A DNA stretch of 64,000 nucleotides, from NCBI GenBank assembly GCA_030390025.1, contig JASTWF010000244.1, forward strand, positions 310,001 to 374,000. The letters run 5' to 3'. The DNA comes from Squalus acanthias. Taxonomy: Eukaryota. The first letter of the stretch is position 1. Each line of letters opens with the position of its first letter. A program made the position numbers and the translations under genes. Below the pieces are notes generated by a model. That model did no database searches, was not told the origin of the DNA, and saw only the letters and a program-made list of their open reading frames with translations. This document shows, piece by piece, positions 3,878 to 53,776 of the stretch.

Positions 3878-3931
3878 CTTCATGTTTTGTCATGTTGATA
3901 TAAGGCGCATCATCTTCATTTTCAGCACAAT
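3878..3931 (-). CDS. Exon 11, short acidic Tyr-motif exon (DCAENEDDAPYINMTKHE)
   Basis: Strong polypyrimidine acceptor (tttgtttttctgttcag), G|GTAAAG donor, 54 nt, phase 1-1, in frame with exon 10. Confidence 0.75.
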
Positions 3932-6900
3932 CTGAACAGAAAAACAAATTAGTTAAATTTGACATAAGTCAAATTAAATAGGCACTTCCAATGTTAAGAG
4001 CATTAATTAACTCATCTAATAGTATTTAAAATAACTGAAGTCACCCAAAATTAACTATTCTCAGCATTAATAAAAAAAAAATTGTTTATTCAATATAAAA
4101 TCTCAATGTGAAATAAACATTCAAATTACTGTTTTGTTGAAATCAAAGCAATCAATATTGCAGTTATAACAATTTTAATGAAATGGTTTGCTTTAAATCC
4201 GACTCCAATAAAACAGCATTCACCTTTAAGGAGTAATTTGAAATCTTTCTCTTGAATTTCCTTTGTTGCTATGTGAAGCACCTCACATCTGATGAAACTA
4301 TCATGATCATTTTCAGTTGCAATAAATTGTGTGCTTACAACTGACGAGAAGAGATCATCGTCTGCAATCACAGGAGGGCTGTTAAACACATCCGAACAAA
4401 GTATCCCATTTTTAAACCACTTTACTTGGACTTCAGCAGGAGCATAGCTTGTCAATGTGATACTGAGTTTTGTAAGCTCATTAACGCCAGGCAGTTCGGG
4501 ATCAGCTTTAATAACGGACAAGGCAGGAGACAAAGCTGAAAAAACAAATAAAAAAGTACATAAGTGTTTAGCCATTGAAGCAAACTGATTAAGTTTTAAT
4601 GTGAACAAAATAAAAAGAAAAGAAAGGGTGCTTGTATAGTTTGTAATATACACAAATTATTTAAGGGAAAATTAATTAAGATCTCATGAACCTGTTCTGC
4701 AAAACTACTGTCATCAGAATTATTAGAATATTTTCTGTAGATATACAGCTCACATATTTACATAAAAGATTCTTTTAAGAACTTAAAGTGAAGATGGCGG
4801 CAGGGCGTTTTGGTGTCCCACTTCACGGCAGCATGTAGTGAAAGACAGCTTTACCCATGGGTGCCAAAGGGACTCCCGAGCAGCAAAGGTCACCGGACCA
4901 ATGCCTCAGACAGGAAGTAGTGCCTCACAAAAGTAAAAAGACCAAAACAAAACTCAATTGAAAATCACCATAATTTTAGTTATTTGATCCAAATCCTGCT
5001 AGAAGTAACTATACTAAAAGTTTGGGGATGAAATTTGATAACACTGAAAAAAGGCTGCAGACACCGCGATGCGAGATATGCCCACGCCCATTCAAGAAGC
5101 ACAGGCAGCACGTTAACTTGGTGCTGCCTGCTATCACCATGATAGCAGCGCACAGCCTAGCGTGGAATGCGCTGCTGACAGGCTGTGCGCTCAGCAGGGG
5201 GCTGAAGTTTGCATCGCTGGAGCGAGACTAGCTTTACTTAAGTTCTGACGAAGGATCACAGACCTGAAACGTTTACTCTGTTTCTCTCTCCACGGATGCT
5301 GCCTGACCTGCTGAGTATTTCCAGCATTTTCTGTTGTTATTTCAGATTTCCAGCATCCGCAATATTTTGCTATTGTATTTTTACTTAAAGCTAGCCTGCT
5401 CCTCTTCAAAGCAGTCTGCAGCTCTTAAAGCTGAGCTGCCTTCTTCAGATAAATAACGCTAAAAGTGCTTCAGCACTCATACAAATCATAGAAACACAGA
5501 CCACGATTTTCCCTACCTCGGCGGGCAAGGTCAGTGGCAGGTCGCGGCCTCACTGCTGGTTCCATCATGGCCTCCGACATGACTTTCCCCTGATTGGGCT
5601 TGTTAATCCCAAACATTTAAATATAAAAGTGGAATTTTTCAAACTGTGGGGGGAGGGGAGAAGGATCAGGGTGAAACATACCTGGAAGTGTTAAATATGC
5701 CTTTTTTACAATTGGAGTCTTTAAATTATCATGCTCCACATGGAAGGAAAAATCCTGATCAAAATCTAGTGCAGTTGGTGTTACTTGCAAGCGGGAAGAC
5801 AACCGATAACATCCATTTTCCTCCCTCTCAGGTCCGTTAGTTGTGATCCCTTTGACTATCGTTTTTTCTTTTTGCATCCAAAATGCACGGATATTTTGTG
5901 GCCGAAAGTTACTGATATCGCAGATGAGAGCAAGATTTGTACCATACCCAGTTTCTGGTGGGTCAATCTTGATGTCTTCAACAGATGGAATTCCTGTTTA
6001 AATTGCATGAAACCACAGTTGATTACAATACTGAATAACCTTCATGGTTAAGGATCAAAAAGGGAGGTTACAAAGAACTGTCTTTTTTTCCCCAAATGAT
6101 GGATATTTAAGATGACAGCAGCCATCAAATCTATCATTGTGCAACTTAGGCTTTGAGGGGAATATTAACCCCAAAACACAGGTGGGTTGGGGTCGGGTGG
6201 AAGGTTAAAGCATTAAAAACCTGAATCCCGACCCCAATCTGCCTCCAACCCACCCACTTCCAGTTTTAACAGAGGGAGGACGGCGGGAGGGAGGGGGGGG
6301 GGTTGGCGGTGGCGGGCAGCCAACCCGCACCCAGGAGGCAGGTTGGCACTTTATATAATGAGGCTAGCAGTCTCAGATTAAACCTGCTATGCTTGTTTAA
6401 TTGTGGCTGGCCGGGGTTCCCGGGCCTTGGGATTCCCAGCAGCTGCAGCGAGGAGAGGACAGCCTTGGGGAGTAATTCTTGTGGGTCGGGAGGAGCAGGA
6501 GTGCATCCTCCTGGCCCCCAAGCTCCCCCACCATCACCTCCCCCCCACCCCACCCCCCCACCTATACAACCCCTGGGTCAGAGATTGGACTTTCCTCCCA
6601 CCCCCTGGGGACGGGGATCGGACACTCCCCCCTCACCTGGGGTCGGAGCTTGCACCTACCTGTGGTTGCAGCCTCTTCGCCAGCGTTTCTCGTCTGACTG
6701 GAATCCAGCCTGTCAATCAGGCTGACTTCCAGGTGGGGAACCTGTCCGTGACGCCAAATGCACGCTGTGGAGTTAAAACCTTAAGTTCCAGGTTTACCAG
6801 CGCTTTACTGCCCACTCCCCCGGGTCCAAACTTAAAAATTCTGGCCTTTGTTTCAAAGATGGTGATGACATTTTTTACACTCTTTACCTTACAAACCATT

Positions 6901-9900
6901 TATGCTGCTGATTTGATAATCACAACTATGTTGGGATACCACCAACTTAGGGCCAATGGAGCCACTGAGAGGAACTCTGGAGTCACAGGCAAACAAGGAA
7001 TGTAAGTGGGGTGGCACAGTTACTGAAGGTATTGTGGATCACCAAAAGAGGTAGTTAAAGCCTGGGCTTCCAATGGCAAAGCTATCATCATCTTCAACAT
7101 AAACACAAAGACTGAATGTTTGAAGGACTTATGGCCACAATGCAGCGTTAATAAAATAATGTTTTATCCTCAACAATCACCAATATGCTATCAGTTTAGG
7201 CCTGTGGTGTTTGTCCTACCTGACTACCAGCCTCTATTAATAAAAACAATGTTAATTTAATGAATTTGAAACACTTAAATCTGTCCATTTACAAAACAAT
7301 CTTTTCAACATTCCATAATTGGTACTATGAAGTTGCACTTCTTGTTGAAACAATATTTACCTTTTATTTTCAAAAAATGACTGGATGAGACAGGCTTGTT
7401 TGAAGTTTCTGAGTGAAGGATTTGCATTTTGAACTCTTGTCCATGGTCCTTATCAGTTGGAATGAATGTCCTTTTGGAGAATCGAGAGTACAAACCAGTT
7501 TCTTCATCAAATTCAATTTCTTCTGTTTCAATTCCATCATGAGTTTTCTGAAACGCTTTGAACCAGAATATTTGATGATCTTCTGGAAAGAAGCCCTTTG
7601 CTTTGCAGGACAGTGTTACAGGTTTTCCCACCTCTGGGTAAAGTGGATCGGCTTTAATTTCTGTTACCTTTGGCATCGACACTACTCGTACAAAAGAAAC
7701 AGTGTTAGAGATTGTGTAACTGAGAGAAGACCACAATTAAAAAAAAAATGTCCAGTATGCCTTGATAAATTTTAAACATTGATTTCTTGAATAACTATCC
7801 TTTTTCTCTGTCCCTCTTTCTTCCCTCACACTGTGGTACAGGCCATGGCTGCAGTCAATGCTCCAGTATCTCTTGGAAGTGGCCAAGAGACTGAACGGAG
7901 TACTGGGAGGCTATTCAAGGCTGATCCTGCATTCACCGAATAAGCACCCACACACTTTGCAACAGGGGTCATTTGACAGTGACATTTCACTTCGCTAGTC
8001 CATGGGGGCGGAGGCAGATAGTACCACTCCACCTAGCGGAGATCAGCAAACTCAGGGATCAGACTTGCAACCTTACAGTTCTCTATGGCTCAGGCCCGAA
8101 TCGGGTGGTGCATTTTCCCAATGAGCTAATAGGGAGCTGCAAACAATCCTTTCCAACTCTATTCAGCTTGGTTCAGCAGTACTGCTCTTGCCACTGAAGG
8201 TGGTCTGGGTTCTCGAGGCATTCCAGGACTTGAGGAAATAATTTACGCCGACAGGTCAGTACAATACTGAAAGAGCACTGCAGTACTGAAAGGGGCCCTG
8301 TCTACCTCTTCAGGTGAACATTAAAGATCTCATTGCACTTATCCAAAGAGCAAGGACTTCTCCTGATGTCCTGGCCAACATTTCGCCCTCAAAACAAAAT
8401 CACCAAAAAAACAGATTAACTGGTCACTCATCACATTGCTGTTTGTGGGACACTGCTCTGCACAAATTGCCTACAAAACAACAAAGATTACACTTCAAAA
8501 CTAATTCATGAGCAATCAAGTATTTATGGACTTAAATAGGATAGGAAAGGCACTATATAAATGCAAGGTTTTTCTTTCGTATTATTGTTCTCAGTTATTC
8601 TGGGCTTTTATTTTATTTATTGCTCTTCCAGATCAAAAAGTACCCCAAATGGAATATTTTTCACAGACTGCAAAAAGATCAACTCAGATTTTCTCAGTTT
8701 GCGAAAATATCGAAAAAACAACCAAGGTAATTTTATTTTTGGGTGAGAGCAAGATTTCCATTTAATTTATTTTGGTTTCTTTATTCCCCTTGTCTCCAAT
8801 CGGATCACTCCAGGTCATGGGCCTTCACGAACAGACCTTTGCCAATGCTGAAACTGCCCAGTAGAATTGTTAGTCACCAACTTAAATCTGTATATTAGTT
8901 TCAGATTATTATTTCCCAATTAACAAATCAGAACAACTAAACACATTAGTCGATTATGCCCCAGATTTTGCTCTCAAAATAACAATGAGTCTAACGGCGC
9001 TCACTGTTATTTATGCTCAAATTGTACAGCAACTTCAGGTGAGGGGTAGATGCGTGGTTAAACTCAAAAATCCAAAAGTTGCTGTCTGAGTTGCCTTTAG
9101 CTTCACAAAAAGGGCATCTCGCCGTTTGCCTCACCATTGAAATGCACTGAATGGCGTGGAGTTGCTGTATTTGCGCAGTAGATCCGAACTAAACCCGCCA
9201 CAGAAAGTTAGGGCTGATCTGAAGTGACGCAAAGACCCCGTCTTGGAGCCATTTAAGGTCCGTGCATATTTAATTAAGCATGGATTCAGACAAAGGGAGC
9301 GTTTTAAGCTGATAACAAAATACTGCGGATGCTGGAAATCCAAAACAACAACAGAAAACGCTGGAAAAACTCAGCAGGCCAGGCAGCATCCGTGGAGAGA
9401 GAAACAGAGTTAACATTTCAGGTCGAAGACCCTTTTTCAGAACTGGAAAAAAGCAGGAAAGGAAATAGATTTAAAGCAAGTATAATGCTGGGAAAAGGGG
9501 GAGGGGATATAAGAACAAAAGGGGATAGAAAGCAGGAGAGATTAAGAGACATTAAGAGATAATCAAGGCAAGAGGAGGTGGTAATGTGACAGGTAGAGTC
9601 TAGATGAGGTGTGAAATGTGCTGGCAGAATGAAGAACAGCTGCCAGCTTCTGGGCGGGAAAAAAAAGGCCAAACAAAAGGGTGGATGAAAAAATAAAATA
9701 AAAAAAAGTGATAGGAGCCAAGGTTATGATCTGAAATTGTTGAACTCTATGTTGAGTCCAGAGGGCTGTAGGGTGCCTAAACGAAAGATGAGGTGCTGTT
9801 GCTCGAGCTTACGCTGAGCTTCTGTGGAACAATGCAAGAGGCCGAGGACGGTGAGGTCAGAATGGGAGTGGAGCGGAGAATTAAAGTGACAGGCCACCGG

Positions 9901-12900
9901 CTTTTTAAGCTGTCTGAGATTCTTTTAATAATGTGTTAATTATGGCCAATCAACCTCACTGGCACTGAAAAATAACTATTACAAGTGTGGAGTCTCATTC
10001 CTTCAGGTATTAATTGTTGGATATTTTAAAAATGTAAAATTTTAAATGTAATTTCTTTTAAAATCTTTTATTTTGTCTCTTTTTCTCTCTTAATCCAAAC
10101 TTTCTTTCCCTCTCTTTCTGTACCTGATTGACATTGAATTCACCCACTCTAATTTACATTTCCTGCTCAGACCTTGCACTGTTAATTTCACTATCATTCA
10201 ATCTGATTGGTTAAGGAGATACACATTTGCTTTCCCTGTTCACTCAGGTCCCAAATGCCTGGGCTGGAATCTTTACCTTGGAGTCGGGTTGTGTGCGTGC
10301 GGGCCGCGTAGCCCAAAGATGTGAACAGCACGTTCTGCACTGCGCATTTTACTGGATAGCTCCAATTAAAACAGTCATGTGCGTTTCCTGGCCCAATTAA
10401 ATGGAGCGGGTCTGATGACATCATTGATCACTCGTTTCCAGCGCGGATATTTAAAGCAGCCTTGCACGCATCACATTTGAAGATTGATGTAGGAGTGCAT
10501 AACGTGATTTCCAGAGGTTTCAATAATGTGATAAAACTGTGGGTCATGGAAACGAGGCAGAGGGCCGCGCCGAGATTCAACGATGCCTCTCTGGAAGTTC
10601 TGGTGCAGGCAGTAAGAGCACGCAGGGAGGTCCTCTTCCCTGGCGATCGACGCAAACGACCAACCAAAGACACAAAAAGGACATGGCTGGAGATTGCAGA
10701 GGAGGTCAGTAGCAGGGATGTGGTCAGGAGGATGTGGCTCCAGTACCGGAAAAGATTCAAGGATCTCATGAGGTCAGGAAAGGTGAGTGCAATGCGGTCA
10801 CTTCATGAACTCGCACAATGGCCACTGAGCTTCCGCCTGCCCTTCACAGGTGAGGTTCCTGTGAATTCCGTGCTCAAGAAGTTAAAGCTAAAAGCTGCTG
10901 TTAAAAAGCCTCTTAAGCGTCTCTCAACAAGCATTTAAGCACTTCAATGAGGTCACCCGCCTCAGCCGAGCAGGTCCGTGGCACGCTGGGAAACGTCCCG
11001 ACTTAAATGCGGAAGTTGGCGGGTTGCCGACACGCTGGAAATTTCGGCGATTTTTACTGCTGACCCGCCACTAACCCACACGCTTGGGACTGGGAAAATT
11101 CAGGCCCTGGTTTCCCTCGCTGTGATATCAGCTCGCACTTCCAGCAACTTGCCACGCTAAAATTTTAAAACCTAAATCATACCAGGGCAAATCTAACTAA
11201 CAGCAGATGCCGTTAGATGCCCTGCCACAGCAAGTTATGGCCCTACATGTTTTTATAAGAAATGTTCAGAAAAAAATAGTAATAGTCATACTCTGGTCAG
11301 AACTTGTTTACTTACCCAGTTTACCGAGTAGCCAGTCAGCTTCCACTGGCTCTGTTAGGCTCTCATGTTCTACTTGACAAGTGTATTTCTTCTCAACATC
11401 AGCTCTGGTAGGTACAATCTTCACACTACTTGTCAAGTAATAGAGTCCATCCTTTCCCAGAGTTGCTGCACTAACTTCACATTCTTCTGTCATTTTCTCA
11501 CCATTTTTGAGCCATGTAACTGTGATTTCACTGGGGTAAAAAGAATGTATTCGACAGTTTAAAGTCACAGCCTCTTCTGCAACTAGTTTTTCTGCTTCAT
11601 ACTTTATCGGGTCCAGTTTTGGAGTGGCTGGAAAAAAACACACACAAAAAGAAAATTACCGCAGGCTTTAACACAAGCAGATTAGAGATATTGTGGACTA
11701 GATTCTCTGCCTATCCACAGCCAATAACCAGAACATTTAATCCATTGTGTTCTGAAAATTCTGAAATAAGACCCAAGGATAAAATAAAAAGTTACACAAC
11801 AAGCTCATTTAAATCAGTGACTCCAGGGCAATCAGCTAATATGTTTCCCTGTTAAATATTTGAGTTCTGAATATTCTTGGATGCATTCTGAATACTTCCC
11901 TTGTAAAAGTATCACTGTCTTCAAGGAGTTATTAAAGAAATACAGCGCTCAGGACATGTCACTCTTCACAGGATTTGCCAAATAAAATTAGCAATTTTGT
12001 TGCATTACAAAAAACAAGGAAACAGTATCTGGAAACAAAATGTTATCCATTGTTCTATACAAGGTATTGTCAAAAATATTACATACCTCTAATCTTTAGA
12101 ATTATTTCTTTCTGTTGGTCACTGCCAGTGCACTCATGCTGTACCTTACAGATGAACTTCGTGTCCTGGTCTTGCAGTATATCTGGCACAATAACTAGTA
12201 CACTGGTGATGCTGTATGTTTTGTCATCATACTCCATCTCACTTATGTAATGGTGATACTTGGACTTCTTCCCTTTGTCACTAGGATAGATTGTTCTGTT
12301 GTCCTTATCCAGCTGAACGATTTCTTTCAATTTATTATTCTTTCCAACTTGTTGCCATGTGATACTTAATGGTCTTGGTTTAAATCCATTGATTGGACAA
12401 GCCAAGGTCACAAACTCATTATGATTGGTGTGAGGTGGCACCACAATGTTTGAAATCTTTGGTGGCACTTTGGGGAGAAAAAAACAAAATAATCACTTAT
12501 TTAAACTGAAAGAATTTTTACTAGTTAATAAGAGCAAGAAAATATTATTCTGCTGTCTGAATTTTCTATGATTTAGAGTCTACAGATGGCAGAACTGCAT
12601 TACCACTATTAACCACATGAATGTCACTTCATACGCACAAATACACGCACAAATACACAAGTTAACAAAAAAGAATAGAATCACATAGCATAAACATTAA
12701 TGATTAAGTGCAAATGTTCATGATTTACCTCCTTTAACATCCAGTGTTACAGTTTTCATAACAGGTGACGCAAGAGTTTTATGTTGAACTTCAATAGTTA
12801 ATTCAGCCCCATCATCGCTGTATAAATCAGGATACGTTTTGATATCGCACTTTAAATTGGAAGTTCCGTCACTGTTAGTTTCATATTCCGGTTCCAAGGA

Positions 12901-15900
12901 CTTCAAGAATGCATCTTGTTCACACCCATTCATAAGAACCTGCACTTCATCTAGTTTTCCGTTGTGCTTTGTTTTCTCTTGGTTCTTTGCGATCTGGTCC
13001 ATACTATTCCAGCAAAAAATTTTCTTTTTGTTTTCATCCCTCTTCCTCTTTAAGAATAAAGCAAGTATAATGCCCTGTGGTCTAAATCCGGTAATTTGGC
13101 AACGGATGACGGCTACCTCAAAATGGCGAATGTCGAGAGGAATGTTGAATTCAGTAATTTTTGGAGTAGCTAATCAAAACAAAAGTCAATAAAACTTGAC
13201 AATCGAAATGTTCTCATTTGTTTACTCTGCTTTATTTTCTTGCTAGGATTACAGGTAGAAATGTATATACACAAGACATGATAATGGCCTGTATTTTCCG
13301 ATCCCTACGGCTGTGTACGAGCTGTGTACACACCCGTAGGGGCCTCGCAAGGGCCGGTTTCAGGCATGTGAAGTGCATGTGCTGAAAACCGGCACTTCCG
13401 ATCTGTCAAGAATTCTCTTGACAGATCATCCGCCTGCCCTGGAGAAGGGCCTCTGTGGGTGGAGAGTTCCGCTTTCTGAAGAACCCTCCGCCCGCTGAAA
13501 ACCTTTAAAAATCTTACGCCTGGTAAAAGCAGGCGTAAGTTCTGCTTTTACCAGCAAGAGAGTTTAAAAAAGTAAAAAAATAAAAAAAAATTCCACTCAT
13601 TTATAACTTTAAAATACTTTTAAAAAAGGTAAGTTTACTTTTAGCCCAGTAAAAAATTTAATTTTTTTTTCCAAAAGTTAAATTTTTGTTTAAAATATTT
13701 AATTTAATGTAATGTAATTAACTAATTTTAAAAACATGATTTTTTTAAAAATTAATGTTTTAGTGTGTATTTTGAGTGATCCCAATTCATACATTTGACA
13801 GGTCTAAGCTGAAAGACCTGTCAAAAATATGAAGGGGGATTCCCTTCTTCCATTGGTTCCCCATGGCCCACGTGATCCGAGGGACGCTTCCAAACCGCCT
13901 GCGCCCCTGGGATACCTGGGCCTCTGCGCATGCACACCAGGAGAGGCCCAGGAGCGGAAATGTCCAGACCTCCGGAGCCCTCAGGTAAGGGTGTAGATTT
14001 TTTCCAGATCGGAGGCATTCGCACGCAGGAAGCCTCTGATCGGAAAATACGGGCCATGGTGTATGTATACACAGGGCAGGAGTTTCCTTAAGGTTGTGCT
14101 GTTTTTTTGAAGCACAATTCATCCGAAAATTTCCAAGCCAGTGCAAATTACGTCCAATGCAAAGCGAGTTTAAAAAACATTGTACAAGAAGCCAGCCCCG
14201 CCCACAAAACTGGCCACGCCCCCAGAGTGAATTCATCACCATTGCAAGTTTCCCTAATTGCTCCCATTTGCAGGCCTTCAAGGAGGCTCTTAAAATTAAG
14301 CTTTTTTTTTAGGAGCAAAGGCACAAATAGGCATGTTTTCAAAGCTTCTGAATATAATTTATTTTTAATTTGCTAAGAAACTGTCTACTGTACACCAATA
14401 TAACTAGCAAATGGTCCTGTATAGTTTTAAAAGTAATTTTCAGTTATTCAAAATTGGGTTACTCACAGGTGGTGGCCTAGACACTGATTAAAAATGCTTA
14501 TTTTTTGTGATAAAGCCATTTTCAGCTGTATTAAGCAAACTGCACCAAGTTACCACACTTAAATACATCAAGGAATATTTTTTAAAGCAAATTTAAAAAA
14601 GAAATTACATTCCAAAATGCTGCCCGATTGCGCTGGTTCATGGCAGGTTTTACGTTTGGTGAAATGCAAATGAGTTTGATCAGAAACAGGGGAAAAAATA
14701 CACTTCTCAAAACGAGTGGAATTTTAGGTACAATTGCACCTAGATTGCCAATTGCGCCCAAAGCGGAAACTCCAGGCCAGGTTCTCTATCTAACACCATT
14801 ATGTGAGAAGTCGCACAACACCAGGTTATAGTCCAACAGTTTTATTTGAAATCACAAGCTTTCAGAGCGCTGCTCCTTCGTCTGATTTCAAATAAAACTG
14901 TTGGACTATAACCTAGTGTTGTGCGACTTCTCACATTTGCCCACCCCAGTCCAACACCGGCATATCCACATCATAACACCATTATGGGAGCACAATCACC
15001 ACAAGGACTGTTGTTGTTCAAGAAGGCCCACCACCACCTAATTTGGGGAAAACATGCAATAAGCAGCCAAAGAATTACAAGAACACAAATACACACATAG
15101 TTATTGTACAATAAAAGGGTTTCACCAGTCAACACATTACCTTTTTTTAATTTTCTGTAAGCATAAAATCCAGCTAAAAACAATAGTGCACAGAACAGCA
15201 ATGTACCAATTATGCTTCCAGCAACCGCACCTGCTGCAGAAGATTTCACAGGCTCTGAAATTTGAAACATAAATACATTAAGCATTTAGACAAAAAACAT
15301 GCAACAAGAAATAAACTGCTTCACTTGCACAGAGTTTGTTATGGTGCTCCTCCATTTCTGTAAATTAGAAATGAAGATACTTAAACGCAGTAAAGTATTT
15401 AAAGAATTTGAAACTATGTGCAGTTAATGTCCCCTCTAAGTAATGGCCTAGAAATTTCATGCAGTGAATTGCACTCCTTTTGCACCAATGAAAAATAAGT
15501 TGCTGCTGCCGGTGGCCTGGAGAGGTATTTACACCACAATTTCATGGGTCAGCTCATTTGCATGTGCATTAGAAAAGTGCAAAACAGGAGTAATATGCTG
15601 TGTTGCATGGAAATTAGAGTAGAGTCTTTAAAAAGCCAGTTCTGGCTGAAGATTGCAGCAGCAGGCAAGTAACGAACAGTGCTCGACTTAGTGAGTTGAC
15701 TGTATGTCACCTGACTGTTTTTGGGACACTTTACAAGAATGTTTAACACAGGAGAACCCAGCAGAGGCAGCCAAAGGCAGAAGGAGGGTATGAGACCAAG
15801 GCAGAGAAGGTGCCACAGTTTCGCTGAGTCCAACCTGCAAACCCTCCTCAATTAAATAAAGCACAGGAGACAGAATGATTTGTGTCCATGGCAGGAAACA

Positions 15901-24900: not shown

Positions 24901-27900
24901 AAAAGTAAGAGATTAGTGAAAGTAAACATGAGTCCCTTAGAGGCAGAGACAAAACAAATTTCATGGGGAATAAGGAAATGACAGAGACGTTAAACAAATA
25001 TTTTGTGTCTATCTTTACAGTAAAGGACACAAAGAACATAACAGAAATTGTGGGGAACCAAAGGTCTAATGAGAGTGAGGAACTCAAATTAATATTGGTA
25101 AAGAAAAAGTACTGGAAAAATTAATGGGACTAAAAGCTGACAAATCTCGTGGACTTAATGGCCTACACCCTTTTTAAAAGAGGTGGCTGCAAAGTTAGTG
25201 GATGCATTGGTTTTGATCTTCCAGAATTCCCTAGATTCTAGAATGGTCCCCGTGGATTGGAAGGTAGCAAATGTAACACTGCTGTTCAAGAAAGGAGGGA
25301 GAGAAAACAGGGAACTATAGGCCAGTTAGCCTGACATCAGTAATAGGGAAAAAGCTAGAATCTCTCATTAACAATGTGGTAACAGATCACTCGGAAAATC
25401 ACAATACAATTAGACACAGTTTTATGAAAGGGAAATTGTGTTTGACAAAATCGAGTTTTTTGAGGGTACCACCATTTAGAAAGTACCCTGTTCTATGCTT
25501 TTTAGCTCCAAAGTGGATGACCTCACATTTGCCTACATTGAAATCCATTTGCCACAGTTTTGCCCATTCAATTAATCTATCTATGTTCTTAATGTCTTTT
25601 CATTGTGGAGAATTAAAGGATGAATTCTTGATTTAAATTAGATGAAAACCTCAGTAGAAATTCAATGTTAAACAATGGGCACAAGTCATTTTAAACAATT
25701 GTAAAATTTAACAAAAGCGCACTGAAAAATATTCCCATCTTACGCAAGGAAGAGGACATACCTTTCACTGTGAGCACAGTTTCCAGTGAACGACTACCAG
25801 GAAGTGATCGGTGCTTCATGACACACCTGTACTTATTATCATCATCATCCACTGTTGGTTCAATTCTCATTCTACTGGAAACATTAAAGGTTCCATCACT
25901 GTTGGAAATTGGGGCACCAGTGCAGATATCTGTTATTATTGTCACAGTTTTGTCCTTTGATATCTTCTCCCAGATGAGCTGATGCTCCGATGGATAAAAT
26001 CCTGTAACGTCACATCTCACAGACCCCTCTGAACCAGTCAAAATGGTAATGTGTTGTGTGGACAAATGGACCACTGGTTGAGCTGTGTTGAAGATAAATG
26101 TAACAATTGGTCAGACAGGCTGAAGGCACATTACCATAAACATCTAAAGCCAGATCAAATTTTTGTTGTGTAAACGTATGCTAAGCACACCACTTTCCTT
26201 CCTTCAGGTATTTCTCTCATATAATAATCTACTCGGTTTCTTCAAGGATGTGGATAATTCTATCTGGAGTGAATTAAGTAACTACTCCAATACCTCAAAT
26301 TCAGATTGAAGCATTCCAAATTCCTCCACCACCAACAAGCATTTTTATAGCATGTTTAATGTACAAAAATGTTTCAAGGTGCGTCACAAATGATGGGGAG
26401 GGAATAGAAGAGGTGACTAAAAGCATGGTGGAATACATATGTTTAGAGAAGGTGTTTGAAAGCAGAGAGAACACTCTGCTACCAGCAGTGGAATGGAGAG
26501 GGCAGGGAATGCACAGGAAGCCATTGAGGAACAAAATACTTGGGGTGGGGCACAAGAGTGGAGATGAGGAGAAAGGGGGGGACGAGGAGAAAGGGGGGCG
26601 ACGAGGAAAAAGGGGGGGACGAGGAGAAAGGGGGGGGCGAGGAGAAAGGGGGGCGACGAGGAAAAAGGGGGGGACGAGGAGAAAGGGGGGGGCGAGGAGA
26701 AAGGGGGGGCGAGGAGAAAGGGGGGGCGAGGAGAAAGGGGGGGGGACGAGGAGACAGGGGGAAATGAGGGGGAGGAGGCAAAGAGGGGGGGTGGAATAGG
26801 AAGAGGAGGTAGAGGTGAAGGAAAACAACAATGTATTTATATAACCTTCAATGTAGATAAACCTCCAAAAGGCACTTCAGAGAGGCATAATCCGTTTCAA
26901 AAAATGGTAAGGCAAAGGAGATATTTGGAGGGGTGGCCAAAAGCTTGGTCAAAGACATTGGTTTTAAGGAGGATCTTAAAGAATGAGAAGGAAGTGGAAA
27001 GATGGAAGGTGCTTAGGAAAAAAAATTGCCACAACATAGGGCAAGGTAGCTGAAGGAATGGTGGGATGGAGCAGTGCAGGATACTTAAGAGGCTATGGTC
27101 AGATTAACGGAGTGTTCGGGGCAGGGTTTGTAGGCATGGAGGAGGTTACAGAGATATGAAAGGGTAAGGCTACAAAGGAGTTAAACAATTTAAAATTCAT
27201 GAACAATACTTCAGCACTATTTATACATAACATTTTAAAAATATTTATTGTATTGAGATTTTCTAAACCCTGGACAAATCGGCCAGGAAATATTCTCATG
27301 CCATTGAATTTGGTTAGAATTGCTGCAGAAATTGGCCTTGACAGACCATAGAATTCTAAGGGCTATGGAAATAATACACTCTCAAAGGGTTTAGAGTGAT
27401 GGTATTAAAAGTCCTCAAATTTCCAGTAGTACATCTACCATATTAATATAACATTTTTGTGCAATTTTTAAATTATGTTTTATAATGATACTCTGTTGGG
27501 ATTGTGTGCATAATTTGTATTTTTTCACTGCTTATATAGCCCATCATAATTTCAATGTTGGGAGTATTCTCATTCGTTGGGTGTGTTTGTGACCGACTAA
27601 AACTCTTCTACTCTTCCCCAACACTGTACCTCACCTTTCTCCTCAGAGAAGTACCCCGACTGCACCATTGTAAGTTTCCAATTTCCCACACAGCCTTCCT
27701 GCTGGTCTCAGGAGTGAGATTGCCAATTCTGTGCCAAAATTAAGAGTGCTCAAACTCATTTCACACATACTGCTAGCAGACAGAGCGGAATCTCATTCCA
27801 TCAGTCTGGGCTGCATTCAAACCCAGACTTCACTGGTGAAAAGATAAGTGTGCTAACCCAATGAATCACCTATTCTACCTTGAGCATGTTTATTCTACAC

Positions 27901-30900
27901 CTTTATGCTTAAATGTACTGTACCTTAGTGTTTCCCCAACCCAACAACTTAATGCAGAGATCAACAACAGTTAACATTCTGGAGACTTACCTGACACCTG
28001 CATTTCTGAACTCTTTGATACCTTATCAGGAGTGACAAATACAGTACAAGTGTATTCTCCTTCTTCATTAAACTGTACATTTGGAAGATGAAGTGAAGCA
28101 TCTCCTTTCTGTAATTCGGTTTCAGACATTTTTGCTCCAGATCTTTTTGATGAATGTTTTCCTCCATTAAAGACATAGATCTCTTCATTTTTGGGCCCAA
28201 ACAACCACTGAACACCTACATTTGTTAAGTCGAGTGTTGGTGTTCTATAGCCTGTAACTTTACATTCCAGGGAAACATCTTCATTCACTAAGACATTCTT
28301 TGGTCTTGCAAATATGTTCACATCCAAGGCTTCTAAATATCAATAGAACAATTAAACATTAATATCTACATTCAAGTATCACAACTAGAAATAAAACAGA
28401 TTCAAAATATACTGCTTGATGTGGCACAGTAGCACTGCCATGGAATGGTTGGATGCAAGGCACATCCATGATTCCCTGACGTGGTGCACTATCAATCTCT
28501 CATCCCTTTGATTGGGGTTGAGCAAATGACAGATGCTTCCTCACAGGGAATTAGGGAGCATCACATTAGGTAATTCAAATGCATGCCCTAGCAACTGATT
28601 ATGAAGCAGAAAAGGTGGAAACTTCAAAGCAAGTTGTATGACTGTCCTCCCAGGTGGGTATGATGCTTAGAATGGGAATACTACAAAAAGAGAGAAAAAT
28701 AAATATTAGGATGATATATTTCTATTGACACACACACACACACACACGTCTCCAAATCTGTTGACTTTCTCTCTCAAAAGGTGACAATTGGTGCTGTTGT
28801 GGGGTTCAACAGTCACAGTAGCCCTCCAATATAGTCAGTGGTAGTCCTCAAATACCTTGTCCAAGTGGTTATTCTTCACATGTTAACGCAAACATTGTTA
28901 GAAAACTATTCAGCCATGAAGGTCTGCAGCTGATCTCTATCCTGTATTCCTGTCAACACACATGCACATTGCAGAAGTTTGTCGATGACAATCAGAAGTG
29001 GGTCACTGGGCTATACATGAAGTTTCTGTTTGTCAGATATGGAGGGAAACATTTACTCTGGCAGGGCTTTTGCTGACCTCCGCGGGCGACATCGGTGGCA
29101 AGTCCCGACCCCGCTGCTGGCTCCAGCCCGCTGTCCAAACTGACTTTTCATTGATGGGGCTTGTTAAGCCCGCCCAGCGCGTTTGCCGGTCCAATTAAAG
29201 GAAGCTGGTCTGATGACGTCATTTGACGACGCATCATCAGCCGGTTTCCTTAAAGGGACCATGGCCAACCTTATTTTGACATTTGTGCTGTCGGTGTTCT
29301 ACAGCATTGAGGTGCTGCAAACACTGACAAGCACTGTACAGAGGTGCAGGGCTGCACTCAGGTTCTCCCATGACTCCCTCCATATGCTTATGGAGGGAGT
29401 TACAGCACACAGGGAGCTCCCCTTCTCTTCCCATGGGCGGAAGAGAACTCCCCAGGAGACCAACACAGCCTGGTTGCACATTGCACAGGAGGTCACAAGC
29501 AGGGATGTTGTCAGGAGGACCTGGGTGCAGTGGCACAAACCTTTTAATGATCTCAGTAGATCACAAAACGTTAGTAAAACACCACACCCCCTTCATCCTG
29601 CTGTGCCTCTCATCACATCCCCTACCTTCCCCCTGCACATCCTTACTCTCACCAACTTACCTTGCACCTCCACCCATCCCTCTTTCTCTGTCTACATTAT
29701 CACAACCCCATCTCACTAGCCACCCTCACACTCACCCTCATCTGAGTGCAATCATACCAACTAACAACACACAAGGGTAGCCACTTGTGTGTTTTATCCA
29801 ATGTTCATGTAAAGTTTCTGTTAATGTGCTGTCAAACATTGAAATCTTTATTTTCAACACTTTGCGTTCTTGGACAGATTTGTGAGCACCTTTAGAAGTG
29901 GCTTAGTGAGCTGCAGTGAATGGTGAGACATAACGGTACCCACTGCAATGATGGTGAGTGTGAAAGGAATGGCTTGGGTATTGTAGGGATGCTTTATGGT
30001 GTTGGTGTGGGGTGGTGCCAACCTGGCGCATCATGTGGCAGCCAGGGTGTACAGCGTCAAGTGAAATAAATCTGGCCATGGTGAGGCCGTCCCTGGCCTC
30101 CCGGGCAGCAATGTGCTCGGGTGCTGATGCCCTCTGTCCTGTGCAGCATCAGGTGATTGCGGAGAAGGTTGGTGTTGTTGTTGCTGCAGGTGTGCCTGGT
30201 GCTGCTCGTGTTGGGGCTGGTCGTGGTCGGATTCTGAGGACCAAAATGAGACAGTATAAAGGGCACCCATGTTGATGGAATAGATGGCAGGTGAAGTAGA
30301 GATGACGGTGAAGTAGAGATGACAGAAGCATTCTGTCAACGGTGAAAGAGTTCTTCCAATGAGGTGAGAGTGGAAAGCCTGAAGAATATGTGCTGGAAAT
30401 TGACTGAGAAACAGCTTGTGGCTGAGGCAAGTGATGATCTGTCAGGTGGGAGCTTTTACTGTGCATTTGAAGCTGTCAAATAATCAGCTGGAGCAATGGC
30501 CACTGAACTCCCGCCTCAGGTTGACAGCCGTGGTCCCCGACCAGCGTGGTTCCCATAGCCATGAAGTTACAGTGAAAAGGTAAGTTAAAAAAGCCTGTTA
30601 ATGATCTGTTAATGACATTATAATGAGTTTAATTAGGACCCCCGCCGCTGCCTGTCGGGGCTGCTCAGCGCTGAAAGACCCGACATTGGGAAAGGCACGT
30701 GGCGGTGGGTTGACAGCGGGGTCCTGACCCGGTCAAAAAAAATCCACTTTTCCACCCGACCCACTACCGATCCCACCCGCTGAACCTCCCGTAAAATTCC
30801 GGCCTCTGTAAGGGCACATTCCATTTACCCAAGTTCAGAAAACTTAGAAGCAGGTTTGCAAATGCCACACTTTAGCGCCCCCCTCCCCCACCAAGTGTAT

Positions 30901-45900: not shown

Positions 45901-47042
45901 AAAAATTTTCTCACGGACAAAAAGGTCGCAGTCAAAGGAGTTCACAAAAAAAAGAGGGAATATTGCTCAGAGGGTTTTTAAAAAAAATATTCATTCTCAA
46001 GATGCGTCACTGGCAAGGCTGACATTTATTGCCTATTTCTTCTTGCCTTGATACGGTGGTGGTGGGCCTTCTTACTGAACTACTAATGGTAATTTGATAC
46101 GATTAATGGCTTGCACTTCAGAGGGCAGTTAAGAACCAACCACGTTAAGTGTTGTACTGGACTCGCTTCTAGACCACATTGGGACAGGTTTCCTTCCTTA
46201 AAAGGACATTAGTAAAGATTTTTACCACAATCTTCATGGTCACTTTTGCAGATACCAGCTTTTTATTACAATATTTTTTTAAAAAAAACGTTTTTATTAC
46301 TAAAGAATAATCTGAATTTAATGTTTTTTGAAACGGAAACTAAACAATGAAGTTTGTTTCCCACTCTTTAATTGCGAAGTACCTAAAATAATTCAACACT
46401 TTTCGTGATAAGAGCAGGGATTAATATTGTGGAGAATGTTTGAGAGAAAAACATTGGGAGCGAGGGTCATGAGTCTTTGGAACTCTCTTCCTCAGAGGGC
46501 GGTGGAAGCGGAGTCTTTGAATATTTTTAAGGCAGAGGTAGATAGATTCTTGGTAAGCAAGGGGGTGAAAAGTTATCCGGGGGTAGGCGGGAATGTGGAG
46601 TAATCAGATCAGCTATGATCTTATTGAATGGCAGAGCAGGCTCGAAGGGCTGAGTGGCCTGCTCCTAGTTCGGATGTAAATGCGGAATGGGTGGGGCTGG
46701 ACTCATGGTACAAAGTATAATTTTCTAAACTTAATTTTTTCCCCCACACAGAACTAGATATACCGTCAGCCTTTCACTTACAAGAACTGGCAATAAAACA
46801 CACACAAAAGGTTGCTTAAAATATACAATTCCTGAGACTGACTCTGGAAAAGAAACTTCTCGTTTGTTGAGACTCCATTTTGTCAGCCCAAGTTTTTAAA
46901 AGAAACATAATTTACACTGGAGAATTTGGAGGACTAAGCGCTGCGATGTTTCTTTACCTGCGGGACAGACGAGCCACACCGCGAGCAGAGCCCACACCAG
47001 GGTCCCGGGACCCCGCAACCCTCCGCAACCTCGAGCCGTCAT
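3878..47042 (-). CDS. NCR3LG1: Multi-exon B7-H6 (NCR3LG1)-like IgSF gene: SP-IgV-IgC1-TM-6xIgC1-Tyr motif; 3' end not found, probably outside the window
   Basis: Eleven exons with canonical AG/GT boundaries, all phase-1 introns, 2995 coding nt in one open frame. The V and first C1 domains match B7-H6 motifs as I recall them (GDASLxLPxxQxxExGEYxCxVxVTP; GFYP..WEK..TGxxIxNxDGTFNVxS..YxCVxxHxSL). Joining the post-TM exons to the same transcript is an inference. Confidence 0.75.
4224..4535 (-). CDS. Exon 10, post-TM C1-set Ig domain D6 (B-strand Cys replaced by Ile)
   Basis: ALSPALSVIKADP..LSITLTSYAPAEVQVKWFKNG..DDLFSSVVS..IRCEVLH; 312 nt. Confidence 0.88.
5240..5382 (+). mobile_element. Penelope-like terminal repeat fragment
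   Basis: ctgacgaagg..cctgaaacgt..gatgctgcctgacctgctgagtatttccagcattttctg; same family at 9312-9440, 36598-36681 and 57893-57965. Confidence 0.65.
5682..5993 (-). CDS. Exon 9, post-TM C1-set Ig domain D5 (F-strand Cys replaced by Phe)
   Basis: GIPSVEDIKIDPP..LICDISNFRPQNIRAFW..NGCYRLSSRL..DFSFHVEHDNL; 312 nt. Confidence 0.9.
6156..6845. mobile_element. Harbinger-type MITE
   Basis: Imperfect TIRs ggggaatattaa / ttaaaaattctggcc around a GC-rich body. Confidence 0.5.
7361..7681 (-). CDS. Exon 8, post-TM C1-set Ig domain D4 (F-strand Cys replaced by Met)
   Basis: VSMPKVTEIKADP..LSCKAKGFFPEDHQIFWFK..GLYSRFS..EFKMQILH; 321 nt. Confidence 0.9.
9312..9902 (-). mobile_element. Penelope-like retroelement 3' fragment (GIY-YIG C-terminus)
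   Basis: The minus strand encodes PVACHFNSPLHSHSDLTVLGLLHCSTEAQRKLEQQHLIFRLGTLQPSGLNIEFNNFRS*; 10-bp TSD ttttaagctg. Confidence 0.8.
10262..11106 (+). mobile_element. Non-autonomous Harbinger derivative retaining the Myb/SANT-like exon 1
   Basis: TIRs with CTG TSD; METRQRAAPRFNDASLEVLV..WLEIAEEV..RKRFKDL followed by a GT donor. Confidence 0.8.
11316..11627 (-). CDS. Exon 7, post-TM C1-set Ig domain D3
   Basis: ATPKLDPI..LNCRIHSFYPSEITVTWLKNG..DGLYYLTSSV..YTCQVEHESL; 312 nt. Confidence 0.92.
12087..12467 (-). CDS. Exon 6, post-TM C1-set Ig domain D2
   Basis: VPPKISNIVVP..LACPINGFKPRPLSITW..DKTYSITSVL..FICKVQHEC; 381 nt. Confidence 0.9.
12729..13169 (-). CDS. Exon 5, post-TM C1-set Ig domain D1 (long insertion; lacks F-strand Cys and C-strand Trp)
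   Basis: ATPKITEFNIP..IRCQITGFRPQGI..NSDGTSNLKC..ELTIEVQHKTL..; 441 nt open, AG/GT boundaries. Confidence 0.85.
13286..14055. mobile_element. Harbinger-type MITE (same family as 33586-34362)
   Basis: TIRs ggcctgtattttccgatc / gatcggaaaatacgggcc; AT-rich core. Confidence 0.8.
14074..14778. mobile_element. Harbinger-type MITE
   Basis: TIRs ggcaggagtttcc / ggaaactccaggcc; CAG flanks. Confidence 0.65.
14804..14973. mobile_element. Penelope-like terminal fragment with inverted duplication
   Basis: About 53-bp near-perfect inverted repeat; 13-bp TSD taacaccattatg at 14791-14803 and 14974-14986. Confidence 0.7.
15141..15254 (-). CDS. NCR3LG1: Exon 4, transmembrane helix plus basic stop-transfer segment
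   Basis: EPVKSSAAGAVAGSIIGTLLFCALLFLAGFYAYRKLKK; tttcag acceptor, gtaatg donor, 114 nt, phase 1-1. Confidence 0.88.
15445..18960 (+). mobile_element. Old Harbinger-like element interrupted by an L2 LINE
   Basis: TIR-like ggcctagaaattt; decayed Myb-like frame (..QCHKKLNDLT) and acidic exon remnants; right end approximate. Confidence 0.45.
16400..17108 (-). mobile_element. L2-type LINE 3' fragment
   Basis: (aac)n tail; frame ..GHAFSCQGPKLWNSLP..SSFKMLLKTYL. Confidence 0.8.
20682..22584 (+). pseudogene. Harbinger Myb/SANT-like DNA-binding protein (3 exons, frameshifted)
   Basis: SDTALEALVQE..WEQIAVEVNA..RTWMQ..KFHGL | EKVSHNRRQQQLTGGG (21194-21353) | exon 3 from 21505. Confidence 0.8.
22758..23855 (-). 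pseudogene. Harbinger (HARBI1-family) DDE transposase, disrupted
   Basis: AINFYASGSFQ, AIDCTNV, YPGSSCDAFIL, LLGDQGYPLTTWLMTP, KQTIGVLKQRFRCL; stop codon and frameshifts. Confidence 0.88.
24250..25465 (+). mobile_element. CR1 LINE ORF2 internal fragment, degenerate
   Basis: YESKLARNIKTDCKSFYKYVKSKR; VPVDWKVANVTLLFKKG..NYRPVSLTS. Confidence 0.8.
25762..26082 (-). CDS. NCR3LG1: Exon 3, extracellular IgC1 domain
   Basis: AQPVVHL..VRCDVTGFYP..IWEK..SDGTFNVSS..KYRCVMKHRSL; both Cys and the Trp present; NVS sequon; 321 nt. Confidence 0.92.
26560..26820 (+). repeat. Purine-rich minisatellite (about 19-20 nt, GCGAGGAGAAAGGGGGG)
   Basis: Roughly ten imperfect tandem units with G6-G9 runs. Confidence 0.85.
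27991..28332 (-). CDS. NCR3LG1: Exon 2, IgV domain of B7-H6-like protein
   Basis: EALDVNIF..SLECKV..VQWLF..GDASLHLPNVQFNEEGEYTCTVFVTP..; ttag acceptor, gtaagt donor, 342 nt. Confidence 0.92.
29041..30805. mobile_element. Internally deleted Harbinger element
   Basis: Myb-like exon (RFSHDSLHMLMEGV..WLHIAQEV..KPFNDL) on +; short transposase-like remnant on - (30031-30271); TIR-like ends. Confidence 0.7.
31245..32869 (-). mobile_element. CR1/L2-group LINE, 5'-truncated RT
   Basis: NYRPISL, FDIKAAFD, GVPQGSVLGP, FADD motifs; 41-bp TSD at 31204-31244 and 32870-32910. Confidence 0.88.
33310..34690 (-). mobile_element. L2 LINE fragment split by a MITE
   Basis: LINE sequence ccaaagacaat|ggctttggt rejoins across the insertion; GVS*RS..HAAPW..SSED remnant of the RT. 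Confidence 0.65.
33586..34362. mobile_element. Harbinger-type MITE
   Basis: TIRs ggggcagaaattcggg / cccgaatttcttgccc; AAT TSD. Confidence 0.85.
36682..37428 (+). mobile_element. L2 LINE 3' fragment
   Basis: NLGVISDPEMSFQPHI..AETLIHAFVTS; (gtt)n tail. Confidence 0.82.
37949..38303. mobile_element. GC-rich Harbinger-type MITE
   Basis: TIRs ggccccgaaatt / aatttcgccc; CAT TSD. Confidence 0.7.
38636..39510 (+). repeat. (GA)n / GAGACTGGGG compound repeat
   Basis: Direct observation; includes the N gap. Confidence 0.9.
38678..38815. other. Assembly gap (138 N)
   Basis: Run of n. Confidence 0.99.
40436..40629 (+). repeat. Gypsy 5' LTR
   Basis: tgtggtaac...cttacgaca. Confidence 0.95.
40708..44706 (+). 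pseudogene. Gypsy gag-pol single ORF with an in-frame TGA at 43924-43926
   Basis: Two CCHC knuckles, protease LIDSGS, RT (LPFG..YLDN), RNase H (CDAS..EKEA..TD), integrase HHCC and D,D-E. The frame continues past the stop into the integrase C-terminus. Confidence 0.92.
44679..44872 (+). repeat. Gypsy 3' LTR
   Basis: Direct repeat of 40436-40629. Confidence 0.95.
45185..46455 (+). repeat. 110-bp direct repeat pair (45185-45294 and 46346-46455)
   Basis: Near-identical copies with two mismatches near the 5' end. Confidence 0.9.
46958..47042 (-). CDS. NCR3LG1: Exon 1, signal peptide (MTARGCGGLRGPGTLVWALLAVWLVCPA)
   Basis: ATG at 47042, hydrophobic core LVWALLAVWLV, small residue at -1, G|GTAAAG phase-1 donor, locally CpG-rich. 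Joins the V exon in frame. Confidence 0.8.
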
Positions 47043-52369: not shown

Positions 52370-53079
52370 GATGCCACACTCAGTCAAATGCTGCCTTGAT
52401 GTCAAGGGCAGTCACTCTCAACTCACCTCTGGAATTCAGCTCTTTTGGCCATGTTTGGACCAAGGCTGTAATGAGGTCTGGAGCCGAGTGGTCCTGGCGG
52501 AACCCAAACTGAGCATCAGTGAGCAGGTTATTGGTGAGTAAGCGCTGCTTGATAACACTGTCTATGACCCCTTCCATCACTTTACTGATGATTGAGAGTA
52601 GGCTGATGGGGTGGTAATTGGCCGGATTGGATTTGTCCTGCTTTTTGTGGACAGGACATACCTGGGTAATTTTCCACTTTGTCGGGTAGATGTCAGTATT
52701 GTAGCTTTAATGGAACAGCTTGGCTAGAGGCACGGCTAGTTCTGGAGCACAAGTCTTCAGCACGATAGCCGGGATGTTGTTGGGGCCCATAGCCTTTGCT
52801 GTGTCCAGTATGATCAGCCATTTCTTGATATCACGTGGAGTGAATCGAATTGGCTGAAGACTGGCTTCTGTGATGGTGGGGACCTTAGGAGAAGAATGTT
52901 ATAATGTTCTAACATTATAACTCACATATTTTTATACGGTTGCAAGCTTGTCGTCTTGACTGCTTAAGCTAGCTTCAGCAAGACTAGACTGCAGTTCCCC
53001 AGGAGCTCCAATGTATTGTATCATTTACAGGTTTAATTATGTAGAACAAATGTGTGTACCATATGGCATCATATTCTGT

Positions 53080-53700: not shown

Positions 53701-53776
53701 TGTGTGTCTACTGCTGATACAACTGCTAACATTTGTTGTGCATGCCTTTGATGTCTTAGGTTGTTTATTTCACTAT

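Follow-up and report, generated by a model that had tools for sequence, protein, structure and literature searches.

A B7-H6-like protein of Squalus acanthias with seven immunoglobulin-type domains after its only transmembrane segment, most likely in the cytosol

Gene structure and splice joints

The minus strand of the 64,000-nucleotide stretch of Squalus acanthias DNA analysed here (the window) carries a gene for a B7-H6-like type I protein, in which a V-set and a C1-set domain precede the only transmembrane segment (TM) and seven further Ig-type domains, most likely cytosolic, follow it. The gene consists of 12 phase-1 exons in the order signal peptide-V-C1-TM-D1 to D6-linker-D7. The exons have AG/GT ends, lengths that preserve phase 1 and no internal stop:

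46958..47042, minus strand: candidate signal-peptide exon, 28 codons plus phase-1 donor (ATG, hydrophobic core, CAG/GTAAAG donor)
27991..28332, minus strand: V-set domain exon, B7-H6-like, with the NKp30-contact motif T-P-x-K (Pfam V-set, 45.5 bits)
25762..26082, minus strand: predicted extracellular C1-set exon, both core cysteines, one N-glycan sequon at aa 209 (Pfam C1-set, 36 bits)
15141..15254, minus strand: TM exon, the sole TM by sequence, last residues YRKLKK
12729..13169, minus strand: D1, Ig-fold domain with a long insert, F-strand cysteine lost (AlphaFold2 beta-sandwich)
12087..12467, minus strand: D2, C1-set, both cysteines present (Pfam C1-set, 39.5 bits)
11316..11627, minus strand: D3, C1-set, both cysteines present (Pfam C1-set, 73.7 bits)
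7361..7681, minus strand: D4, C1-like, F-strand cysteine lost (Pfam C1-set, 35 bits)
5682..5993, minus strand: D5, C1-like, F-strand cysteine lost (Pfam C1-set, 42.7 bits)
4224..4535, minus strand: D6, C1-like, B-strand cysteine lost (Pfam C1-set, 30.4 bits)
3878..3931, minus strand: acidic linker exon with YINM (joint from D6)
G000:C1615:309690 downwards, minus strand: D7, final coding exon, outside the window (open frame ending in a stop codon)

All exons reported in the initial annotation (TM, D1 to D6 and the tyrosine-motif exon) were recovered on the minus strand; their ends are AG/GT and their frames open. Its six tail Ig exons are real, but their number rises to seven with D7, which begins outside the window, 310 bases to the left of it, gives a weak Pfam C1-set match (18 bits, below the cut-off of 21) and is the closing domain of full-length relatives. 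Similarly, its minimum of 998 aa holds as the length up to the tyrosine-motif exon, whereas the entire frame amounts to 1,099 aa; and the tail, put at about 700 aa of Ig repeats, is long indeed, with about 815 aa C-terminal to TM. The candidate signal-peptide exon has a 93% identical copy at the corresponding place in a paralog, and one contig holds 79 unplaced letters ahead of V.

The sequencing runs were taken as RNA by guess, none being recorded as such, and the joints reported here are therefore those of transcript-like contigs. Joints at GT-AG sites were seen in 4/4 runs for V-C1, C1-TM, D1-D2, D3-D4, D5-D6 and D6-linker, and in 3/4 for D4-D5. The TM-D1 joint, 15141 to 13169, was present in at least two of five runs among the matches listed, from two studies, with short sides of only 27 and 23 letters that fall below the tool's 31-letter bar; a single 598-nt contig, with 1 difference, runs from V through C1 and TM into D1, of which it holds 27 nt. 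The D2-D3 joint was not found among the matches listed, and the signal-peptide and D7 joints are predicted. A back-joint from D3 to the start of D1 occurred in 4/4 runs; circular RNA is not needed to explain it, because a paralog carries tandem D1-D2-D3 units.

These joints bear on the reading that B7-H6 here has a short tail and stops at the TM exon, with D1 to D7 being a separate gene or a fusion made by gene models. Contigs of low depth (9 vs 57 in X1) do continue past the TM exon into the intron that follows, three AATAAA motifs lie in the TM-D1 intron, and a close copy in the cluster on contig C10 has a 1-base deletion in D1. However, the TM-D1 joint was found in two studies, and proteins from at least 12 genera in the databases show the same fusion, as do two distant paralogs in this genome, both of which have a TM exon of their own separating C1 from D1. 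Moreover, in agreement with the initial annotation, no second signal-peptide or TM exon was found in the array: no signal-peptide exon lies between TM and D1, and a hydrophobic frame at window 71-1 was rejected as a second TM, since it runs into a stop and has a contig depth of 0-5.6 (bin 1-524) vs 81-282 in the exon contigs. We regard the separate-gene reading as largely refuted and highly improbable.

A B7-H6-type ectodomain

For the V exon, the top PDB match was human B7-H6 (E 3e-13), and a profile of the relatives scored 202.7 bits against B7-H6 and 167.4 bits against CD276. The predicted model of a ray relative superimposed on B7-H6 with a TM-score of 0.91 (2.2 A, 223 columns). When the NKp30-contact residues of the B7-H6 V domain (Table II, PMC3135353) were compared, 6/11 proved identical (T59, G62, G83, T127, P128 and K130), among them all three polar contacts, and S60, M61, F82, V125 and L129 differed. 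T127, P128 and K130 are also present in 32, 36 and 28 of 41 relatives, respectively. The genomic setting points the same way: KCNJ11, the neighbour of the human B7-H6 gene, is found 22 kb beyond the final paralog of the cluster on C10, and that cluster contains a copy 86-98% identical to the window's gene; the window's own contig, C1615, is not linked to KCNJ11. The human gene itself is placed at 11p15.1 (PMC2715080). Judged by V and C1 similarity, NKp30-contact residues and the KCNJ11-side cluster, the ectodomain is that of B7-H6, and the one TM and type I layout are as expected for the B7-H6/NCR3LG1 ortholog group. This agrees with the NKp30-type ligand ectodomain proposed by the initial annotation, and the outer V and C1 would likely bind NKp30-type receptors.

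Tail domains: fold, cysteines and conservation

The six tail domains in the window had been classed as C1-set. Five of them, D2 to D6, pass the Pfam cut-off, but D1 had no Ig match in the Pfam scan; its AlphaFold2 model is nevertheless a beta-sandwich of Ig type, into which a long insert is built (pLDDT 86, pTM 0.78). The cysteine pair of strands B and F is present in D2 and D3 and absent from D1, D4, D5, D6 and D7, and because five of the seven tail domains thus lack a core cysteine, the class name has to be softened to C1-like or C1-derived. Among 45 hand-picked relatives, both core cysteines were present in V (39/40) and C1 (43/43) and, as in these outer domains, in D2 (38/44) and D3 (40/44); the counts were 1/33 for D1, 1/30 for D4, 7/28 for D5, 2/23 for D6 and 7/15 for D7.

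Mean identity was 0.28-0.34 for the tail domains, comparable to V and C1 (0.33-0.35). In a tree, the domain classes formed supported clades across taxa, a clustering that is partly circular as class labels were given by best match to this gene's own domains. D1 joined D2 (support 99/95), and the outer C1 joined a domain of this genome that we presume to be tapasin-like (90/85). All tail domains formed one group in a quick tree (94 SH-aLRT); in a careful tree, a single tail-domain origin needed 2 changes, and one group was found in 76% of 200 bootstrap trees. The ray relative's model showed nine beta-sandwich domains (pLDDT 84.5) and a disordered linker, and its pTM of 0.40 indicates that the domains have no fixed arrangement. 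Fc-like pairing of the tail domains was considered as well: polar residues predominate at the outward positions of the ABED face (share of hydrophobic residues 0.16-0.32, with 0.18 in the outer C1), but Ig constant domains taken as a control were often polar too, making this a weak test.

The tyrosine-motif exon is present as annotated, but its motif is not kept. YINM, presumably a Grb2/PI3K site, was rejected as a conserved one: it is gone from the C10 close copy, and YxNM occurs in 0/45 relatives. The tail of the window's gene showed no enzyme domain, Pfam found no Gag family in two full-length relatives, and the B30.2/SPRY domain that would point to a butyrophilin was absent from the Pfam scans of the exons and of the same two relatives.

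Membrane topology

Of 150 representatives listed, 74 carry a V-like domain; in 67 of these a hydrophobic segment is followed by Ig domains, and a second such segment was found in none. TM is missing from the other seven, one being a named isoform (Bombina X2). Across the relatives, which are kin so that counts over them are not independent, net charge was -0.4 before TM and +1.6 after it (higher after in 32/41 proteins), and the ratio of observed to expected sequons was 1.57 before and 1.08 after (excess larger before in 28/41). With one TM, positive-inside charge, sequons enriched only before TM and loss of the cysteine pair, the seven tail Ig domains most likely sit in the cytosol, a placement well supported by these signatures; the outer-domain-like retention of the pair in D2 and D3 counts against it. 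The cytosolic tail that the initial annotation had deduced thus agrees with charge, sequons and cysteine loss alike, and its reading of one B7-H6-like protein of type I, in which a long series of Ig domains comes after the sole TM, is upheld by the splice joints and by the same order in relatives.

With phase 1 at both of its ends, the TM exon could be skipped in frame. The D domains might therefore matter chiefly in a secreted V-C1-D1 to D7 form, a soluble multivalent NKp30 ligand or decoy, with cytosolic placement as a by-product. Besides the exon phase, the seven V-bearing representatives that lack TM and the cysteine pairs of D2 and D3 fit such a form. Against it stand the TM in 67/74, the C1-TM joint in 4/4 runs, with no TM-skipping C1-D1 joint among the matches listed, and the unpaired cysteines of D1, D4 and D6 and chance-level tail sequons, which are unlike secreted Ig domains. 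We consider a mainly secreted role quite improbable.

Relatives and age of the layout

The V-C1-TM-D1 to Dn order, which the initial annotation had proposed to look for in other taxa, was found domain by domain in database proteins of Narcine (XP_069754451.1), Callorhinchus (XP_007885690.2), Latimeria (XP_014340773.1), Bombina (XP_053576613.1) and Pantherophis (XP_034272854.1), and the layout is common to sharks, rays, chimaeras, lungfish, amphibians and a snake. Because the same order extends from chimaera to snake, the layout is likely old and ancestral rather than shark-specific. The topology called unusual does place an Ig array after TM, but it is widespread rather than confined to this genome. 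At NCBI, the Bombina, Rhinophrynus and Pantherophis proteins carry the name NCR3LG1, and most others are labelled "uncharacterized protein". An exact look-up of two exon peptides gave no match, and a literature search, with several key B7-H6 evolution papers outside its reach, returned no description of a cytosolic-Ig-tail topology; the proteins are already in databases, and specialists may have described it.

Tail domain number among the relatives ranges from 2 to more than 8, and frog proteins reach 2,158 aa. In this genome the B7-H6-like genes form a multigene cluster, and paralog tails have expanded by tandem D1-D2-D3 units (C1615:38.6-77.5 kb), by five D4-like exons (C10:45.436-45.446 Mb) and by four D1-like exons (C10:45.498-45.513 Mb).

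Comparison with known systems places the protein apart. Human B7-H6 (NCR3LG1), an NKp30 ligand, shares the V and C1 ectodomain, the type I orientation and the single TM. PMC2715080 describes it as a 454-aa protein whose GAG-homologous tail bears ITIM, SH2 and SH3 motifs. No such tail is present here; in its place stand seven Ig domains only, over about 815 aa and without a conserved tyrosine motif, and the genome holds a multigene cluster. Shark UrIg2, given in PMC12227049 as VJ plus nine C1 domains and TM with a tandem C1 array from exon duplication, likewise has a long array of that origin, but there it lies before TM, outside the cell, and the V domain is antigen-receptor-like. NCR3LG1 clusters with TAPBP/TAPBPL in PMC13262535. 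SIRP and tapasin/TAPBPR, which combine V and C1 domains too, appear among the PDB matches. These proteins are short-tailed, with every Ig domain on the lumenal or extracellular side; here, by contrast, 7/8 C1-like domains follow TM, unlike the arrangement of SIRP and UrIg, where all C1 domains precede it. Tandem cytosolic Ig folds, often without the disulfide, are found in titin, obscurin and APEG-1, but those are I-set rather than C1-like and do not serve as the tail of a surface ligand of the immune system.

Proposed role of the tail

We see about even chances that this one-pass protein of the B7-H6 lineage uses its cytosolic seven-Ig tail as a docking scaffold that controls ligand display, a role guessed from anatomy. 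The outer V and C1 would engage NKp30-type receptors, and the seven domains would form a multivalent scaffold, like beads on a string, setting which fraction of the ligand is retained inside, clustered or displayed on the surface. Since the tail has neither an enzyme domain nor a conserved tyrosine motif, it would act by protein-protein contact through its Ig surfaces. Separate domain classes could have distinct host partners, which would suit the keeping of each class's identity throughout jawed vertebrate history, and paralogs could adjust valency through tail exon duplication.

The same tandem folds could alternatively make a passive, titin-like mechanical tether or spacer, anchoring the ligand at the cortex with no regulated partners involved. 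The loose domain arrangement of the ray model and the differing lengths of paralogs are in keeping with this, and the titin I-band was among the top whole-model Foldseek matches, albeit at a low TM-score of 0.20 and 13% identity. The domains are C1-like rather than I-set, however, and distinct classes in fixed order across taxa exceed what a spacer needs, making a tether improbable.

Selection in recent copies fits less well with a scaffold that has a conserved host partner, and better with conflict. Among the copies in this genome, pN/pS was 0.30 for C1 and 0.08 for TM as against 0.97 for V and 1.2-3.0 for D5 to D7, and the tail domains as a whole (0.47-3.0) showed little purifying selection, on small counts; the D4 to D7 values come from 2-3 copies, some probably broken genes, and no significance is attached to them. 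With the same topology, the tail may be a bait or sensor: pathogen proteins would bind or cleave its Ig folds and thereby release or cluster the NKp30 ligand at the cell surface; the Gag-like human tail would then be a later bait swap. Independent expansion of tail exons in paralogs, the size of the frog proteins and the GAG homology of the human tail (PMC2715080) favour this reading, but long-term conservation of the tail equals that of the ectodomain. We hold both the bait or sensor function and the later swap to be doubtful. To our knowledge, the tail has no known pathogen partner.

Implications

C1-type Ig domains typify the secreted and surface components of adaptive immunity, and a conserved intracellular array of them is unexpected. 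The human Gag-like tail looks derived, the older form of B7-H6 having had about 800 residues of Ig domains. The part of the B7-H6 tail in stress-induced display or reverse signalling, and the stability of the C1 fold without its disulfide, become testable. More speculatively, and in our view unlikely, the ancestral jawed-vertebrate B7-H6 might have been a two-sided alarm, with an NKp30 ligand outside and a cytosolic C1-derived chain that baits or senses pathogens. If this were true, the chain would make up a first class of C1-type domains with a cytosolic function, and in mammals a Gag-like tail of retroviral origin would have taken its place.

A B7-H6 homolog with a seven-domain Ig tail

Six-frame translation and splice-site reading verified each exon that the initial annotation had claimed, all on the minus strand. 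Its six tail exons stood; its totals (at least 998 aa, about 700 aa of tail) had to be revised upon adding a further domain, D7. Twelve phase-1 exons (SP, V, C1, TM, D1-D6, an acidic linker carrying YINM, and D7) now join into a single open frame that encodes 1,099 aa, ~815 of them after the transmembrane (TM) segment. The two outermost exons are as follows.

Window 47042-46958, minus strand: candidate signal-peptide (SP) exon, by sequence reading
G000:C1615:309690 downwards (same contig, just outside the window), minus strand: D7, last exon, by frame reading

Pfam assigned domain 1 to the V-set and domain 2 and D2-D6 to the C1-set; D7 scored under the cut-off and D1 was without any Ig match. 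AlphaFold2 predicted D1 as a beta-sandwich with a helical/disordered insert (pLDDT 86, pTM 0.78).

The gene is real and a member of the B7-H6 lineage. For the V exon, human B7-H6 (NCR3LG1, an NKp30 ligand) was the best solved-structure relative (E 3e-13), and it also topped a profile of 33 related sequences at 202.7 bits, followed by CD276 at 167.4. The structure model of a ray relative of the same architecture superposes on B7-H6 at a TM-score of 0.91. Measured against the eleven NKp30 contacts given in Table II of PMC3135353, six are identical in this gene, including T127, P128 and K130, which among 41 relatives are kept in 32, 36 and 28, respectively. Compared with three near copies, V differences (window 28330-27992) cluster in the C'C'' and FG regions, which contact NKp30 in the human structure. 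On C10, another contig of this genome, four V-C1 genes form a cluster whose end lies 22 kb from a KCNJ11 gene, KCNJ11 being the neighbor of NCR3LG1 in the human genome; C1615 is either a second haplotype of this cluster or a separate locus. Whereas human B7-H6 comprises 454 aa with a GAG-homologous tail (PMC2715080), the shark gene encodes 1,099 aa with seven tail Ig domains.

Transcript evidence for the joined gene

Thirteen runs cover part of the stretch, ten of them presumed RNA from a guessed type. Joints from V to the linker exon were examined in five runs, all as contigs, from two studies. The V-C1, C1-TM, D1-D2, D3-D4, D5-D6 and D6-linker GT-AG joints were each found in 4/4 runs and D4-D5 in 3/4; D2-D3 was not among the joints listed (154 further rows). 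The TM-to-D1 junction, which the initial annotation had named as a check, was seen in two of the five runs, one per study, with short sides of 27 and 23 letters, under the 31-letter bar. A single 598-nt contig holds V, C1, TM and 27 letters of D1, with one difference from the window. Such short sides would be expected if a second route into D1 makes contigs break there, and such a route is suggested by a joint that leads back from the D3 end to the D1 start (4/4 runs) and by tandem D1-D2-D3 units in a genomic paralog. Low-depth contigs in which the TM exon runs on into intron sequence count against TM-D1 joining. That D1-D7 form a separate gene is nevertheless highly improbable; two distant paralogs show the V-C1-TM-D1..D6 order, each having its own TM exon after C1 and before D1.

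C1615:188-211 kb: distant paralog, 35-49% identity
C10:45.65-45.67 Mb: distant paralog, 27-46% identity

D4-D6 contigs extend ~1,490 letters beyond the linker exon, enough to hold D7 plus a 3' untranslated region.

Predicted topology of the tail

Because a signal peptide, a B7-H6-type ectodomain and one TM segment precede it, the tail is very probably cytosolic. We examined 45 relatives picked for having this architecture; these are kin, so P values should not be read literally. With domains gapped at either cysteine position excluded, both core cysteines are kept in V (39/40) and C1 (43/43), but less often in the tail domains D1 (1/33), D4 (1/30), D5 (7/28), D6 (2/23) and D7 (7/15). The pair is retained in D2 (38/44) and D3 (40/44), which fits less neatly with a cytosolic location. 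The observed/expected ratio of N-glycan sequons, with shuffled sequences as the expectation, is 1.57 ahead of the TM segment and 1.08 behind it (41/45 proteins, TM at the usual place), and net charge is -0.4 before and +1.6 after (41/45). Cysteine, sequon and charge tests all agree with a cytosolic tail, in line with the type I protein with a cytosolic Ig array predicted initially.

Spread and age of the architecture

With D2 as query, 1.84 billion representatives gave 248 matches, 150 of them listed. A V-like domain occurs in 74 of the 150, and a simple hydropathy scan, rather than a trained predictor, found a hydrophobic segment with Ig domains after it in 67 of these and no such segment in seven. 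Among these listed matches, none of the 67 had a second hydrophobic segment with Ig domains. That a secreted, TM-skipped form is what counts appears quite improbable. Twenty of the 150 are named, from two rays, chimaera, coelacanth, lungfish, bichirs, frogs, newt, caecilian and corn snake; no mammal, bird or teleost is among these 20, the other 130 being without a name. Frog-type relatives (P0027 from Dendropsophus, P0070 from Xenopus, P0040, P0042 and P0049) combine two or three outer domains with a greatly extended tail, the proteins reaching as much as 2,158 aa.

A tree was built from 122 domains: those of 12 named proteins and of this gene, plus 23 further C1 domains from the genome. Save for a few long or relabelled rows, D1+D2, D3, D4, D5, D6 and D7 each came out as a well-separated, supported cross-taxon group. 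As these groups span taxa, we infer that the array was in place before cartilaginous and bony fishes diverged; the seven-domain tail is probably ancestral. On a common origin of all tail domains, two trees gave no single answer.

Copies, paralogs and transposons

The genome also carries near copies, some incomplete; from few copies, pN/pS was lowest for TM (0.08) and C1 (0.30), with V at 0.97 and the tail domains at 0.47-3.0. In the nearest copy, one base is missing from a short A run of D1 (G000:C10:45593813-45594246), reflecting either a gene with a truncated tail or an error in the assembly. Exon matches identified further tails on C10.

G000:C10:45419845-45512762: two further V-C1 genes; one tail has five D4-like exons, the other four D1-like exons

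At C10:45394010 there is also an isolated D3-like exon. The paralog at G000:C1615:13247-77525 has a doubled C1 exon and a D1-D2-D3 run (4 D1, 6 D2, 6 D3), some split by insertions; no D4-D7 were found after it.

The SP-V intron holds a 4.4-kb Ty3/Gypsy-type retrotransposon (window 40436-44873, plus strand). Its protease-RT-RNase H-integrase frame, 1,079 aa long, is interrupted by one stop near 43926. Two 99% identical copies (C1615:22087-26527 and 51322-55764) suggest recent movement within the cluster. In the C1-TM intron (window 23835-21100) lies what remains of a Harbinger-type DNA transposon; its DDE_Tnp_4 matches fall in frames that are broken. The end of a 265-aa frame (window 54692-55489, minus strand), a hydrophobic helix plus a short basic tail, is reminiscent of the last part of an envelope-type gene from a mobile element.

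Proposed function of the tail

A cytosolic Ig tail was not described in titles and abstract starts on B7-H6/NCR3LG1 in shark, fish or Xenopus, or on cytoplasmic Ig, a set covering key B7-H6 evolution literature in part, nor in passages of PMC10751288, PMC11599192, PMC12227049, PMC6514059, PMC13262535 and PMC12272517. The Tyr-motif exon, initially singled out as a feature, lost its standing, as the motif lacks conservation in relatives; no conserved Tyr motif and no enzyme domain was found in the tail. In the ray relative's model, the tail domains are predicted to fold singly, without a fixed arrangement (pTM 0.40). Over long times, tail conservation is similar to that of the ectodomain. A passive tether seems rather improbable, and a pathogen bait or sensor is unlikely. 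We favor a tail acting as a multivalent docking scaffold, a reading from sequence and models whose chances we judge evenly balanced: on the outside, the V domain would bind receptors of the NKp30 family, and the tail would govern how the ligand is held, clustered or displayed.
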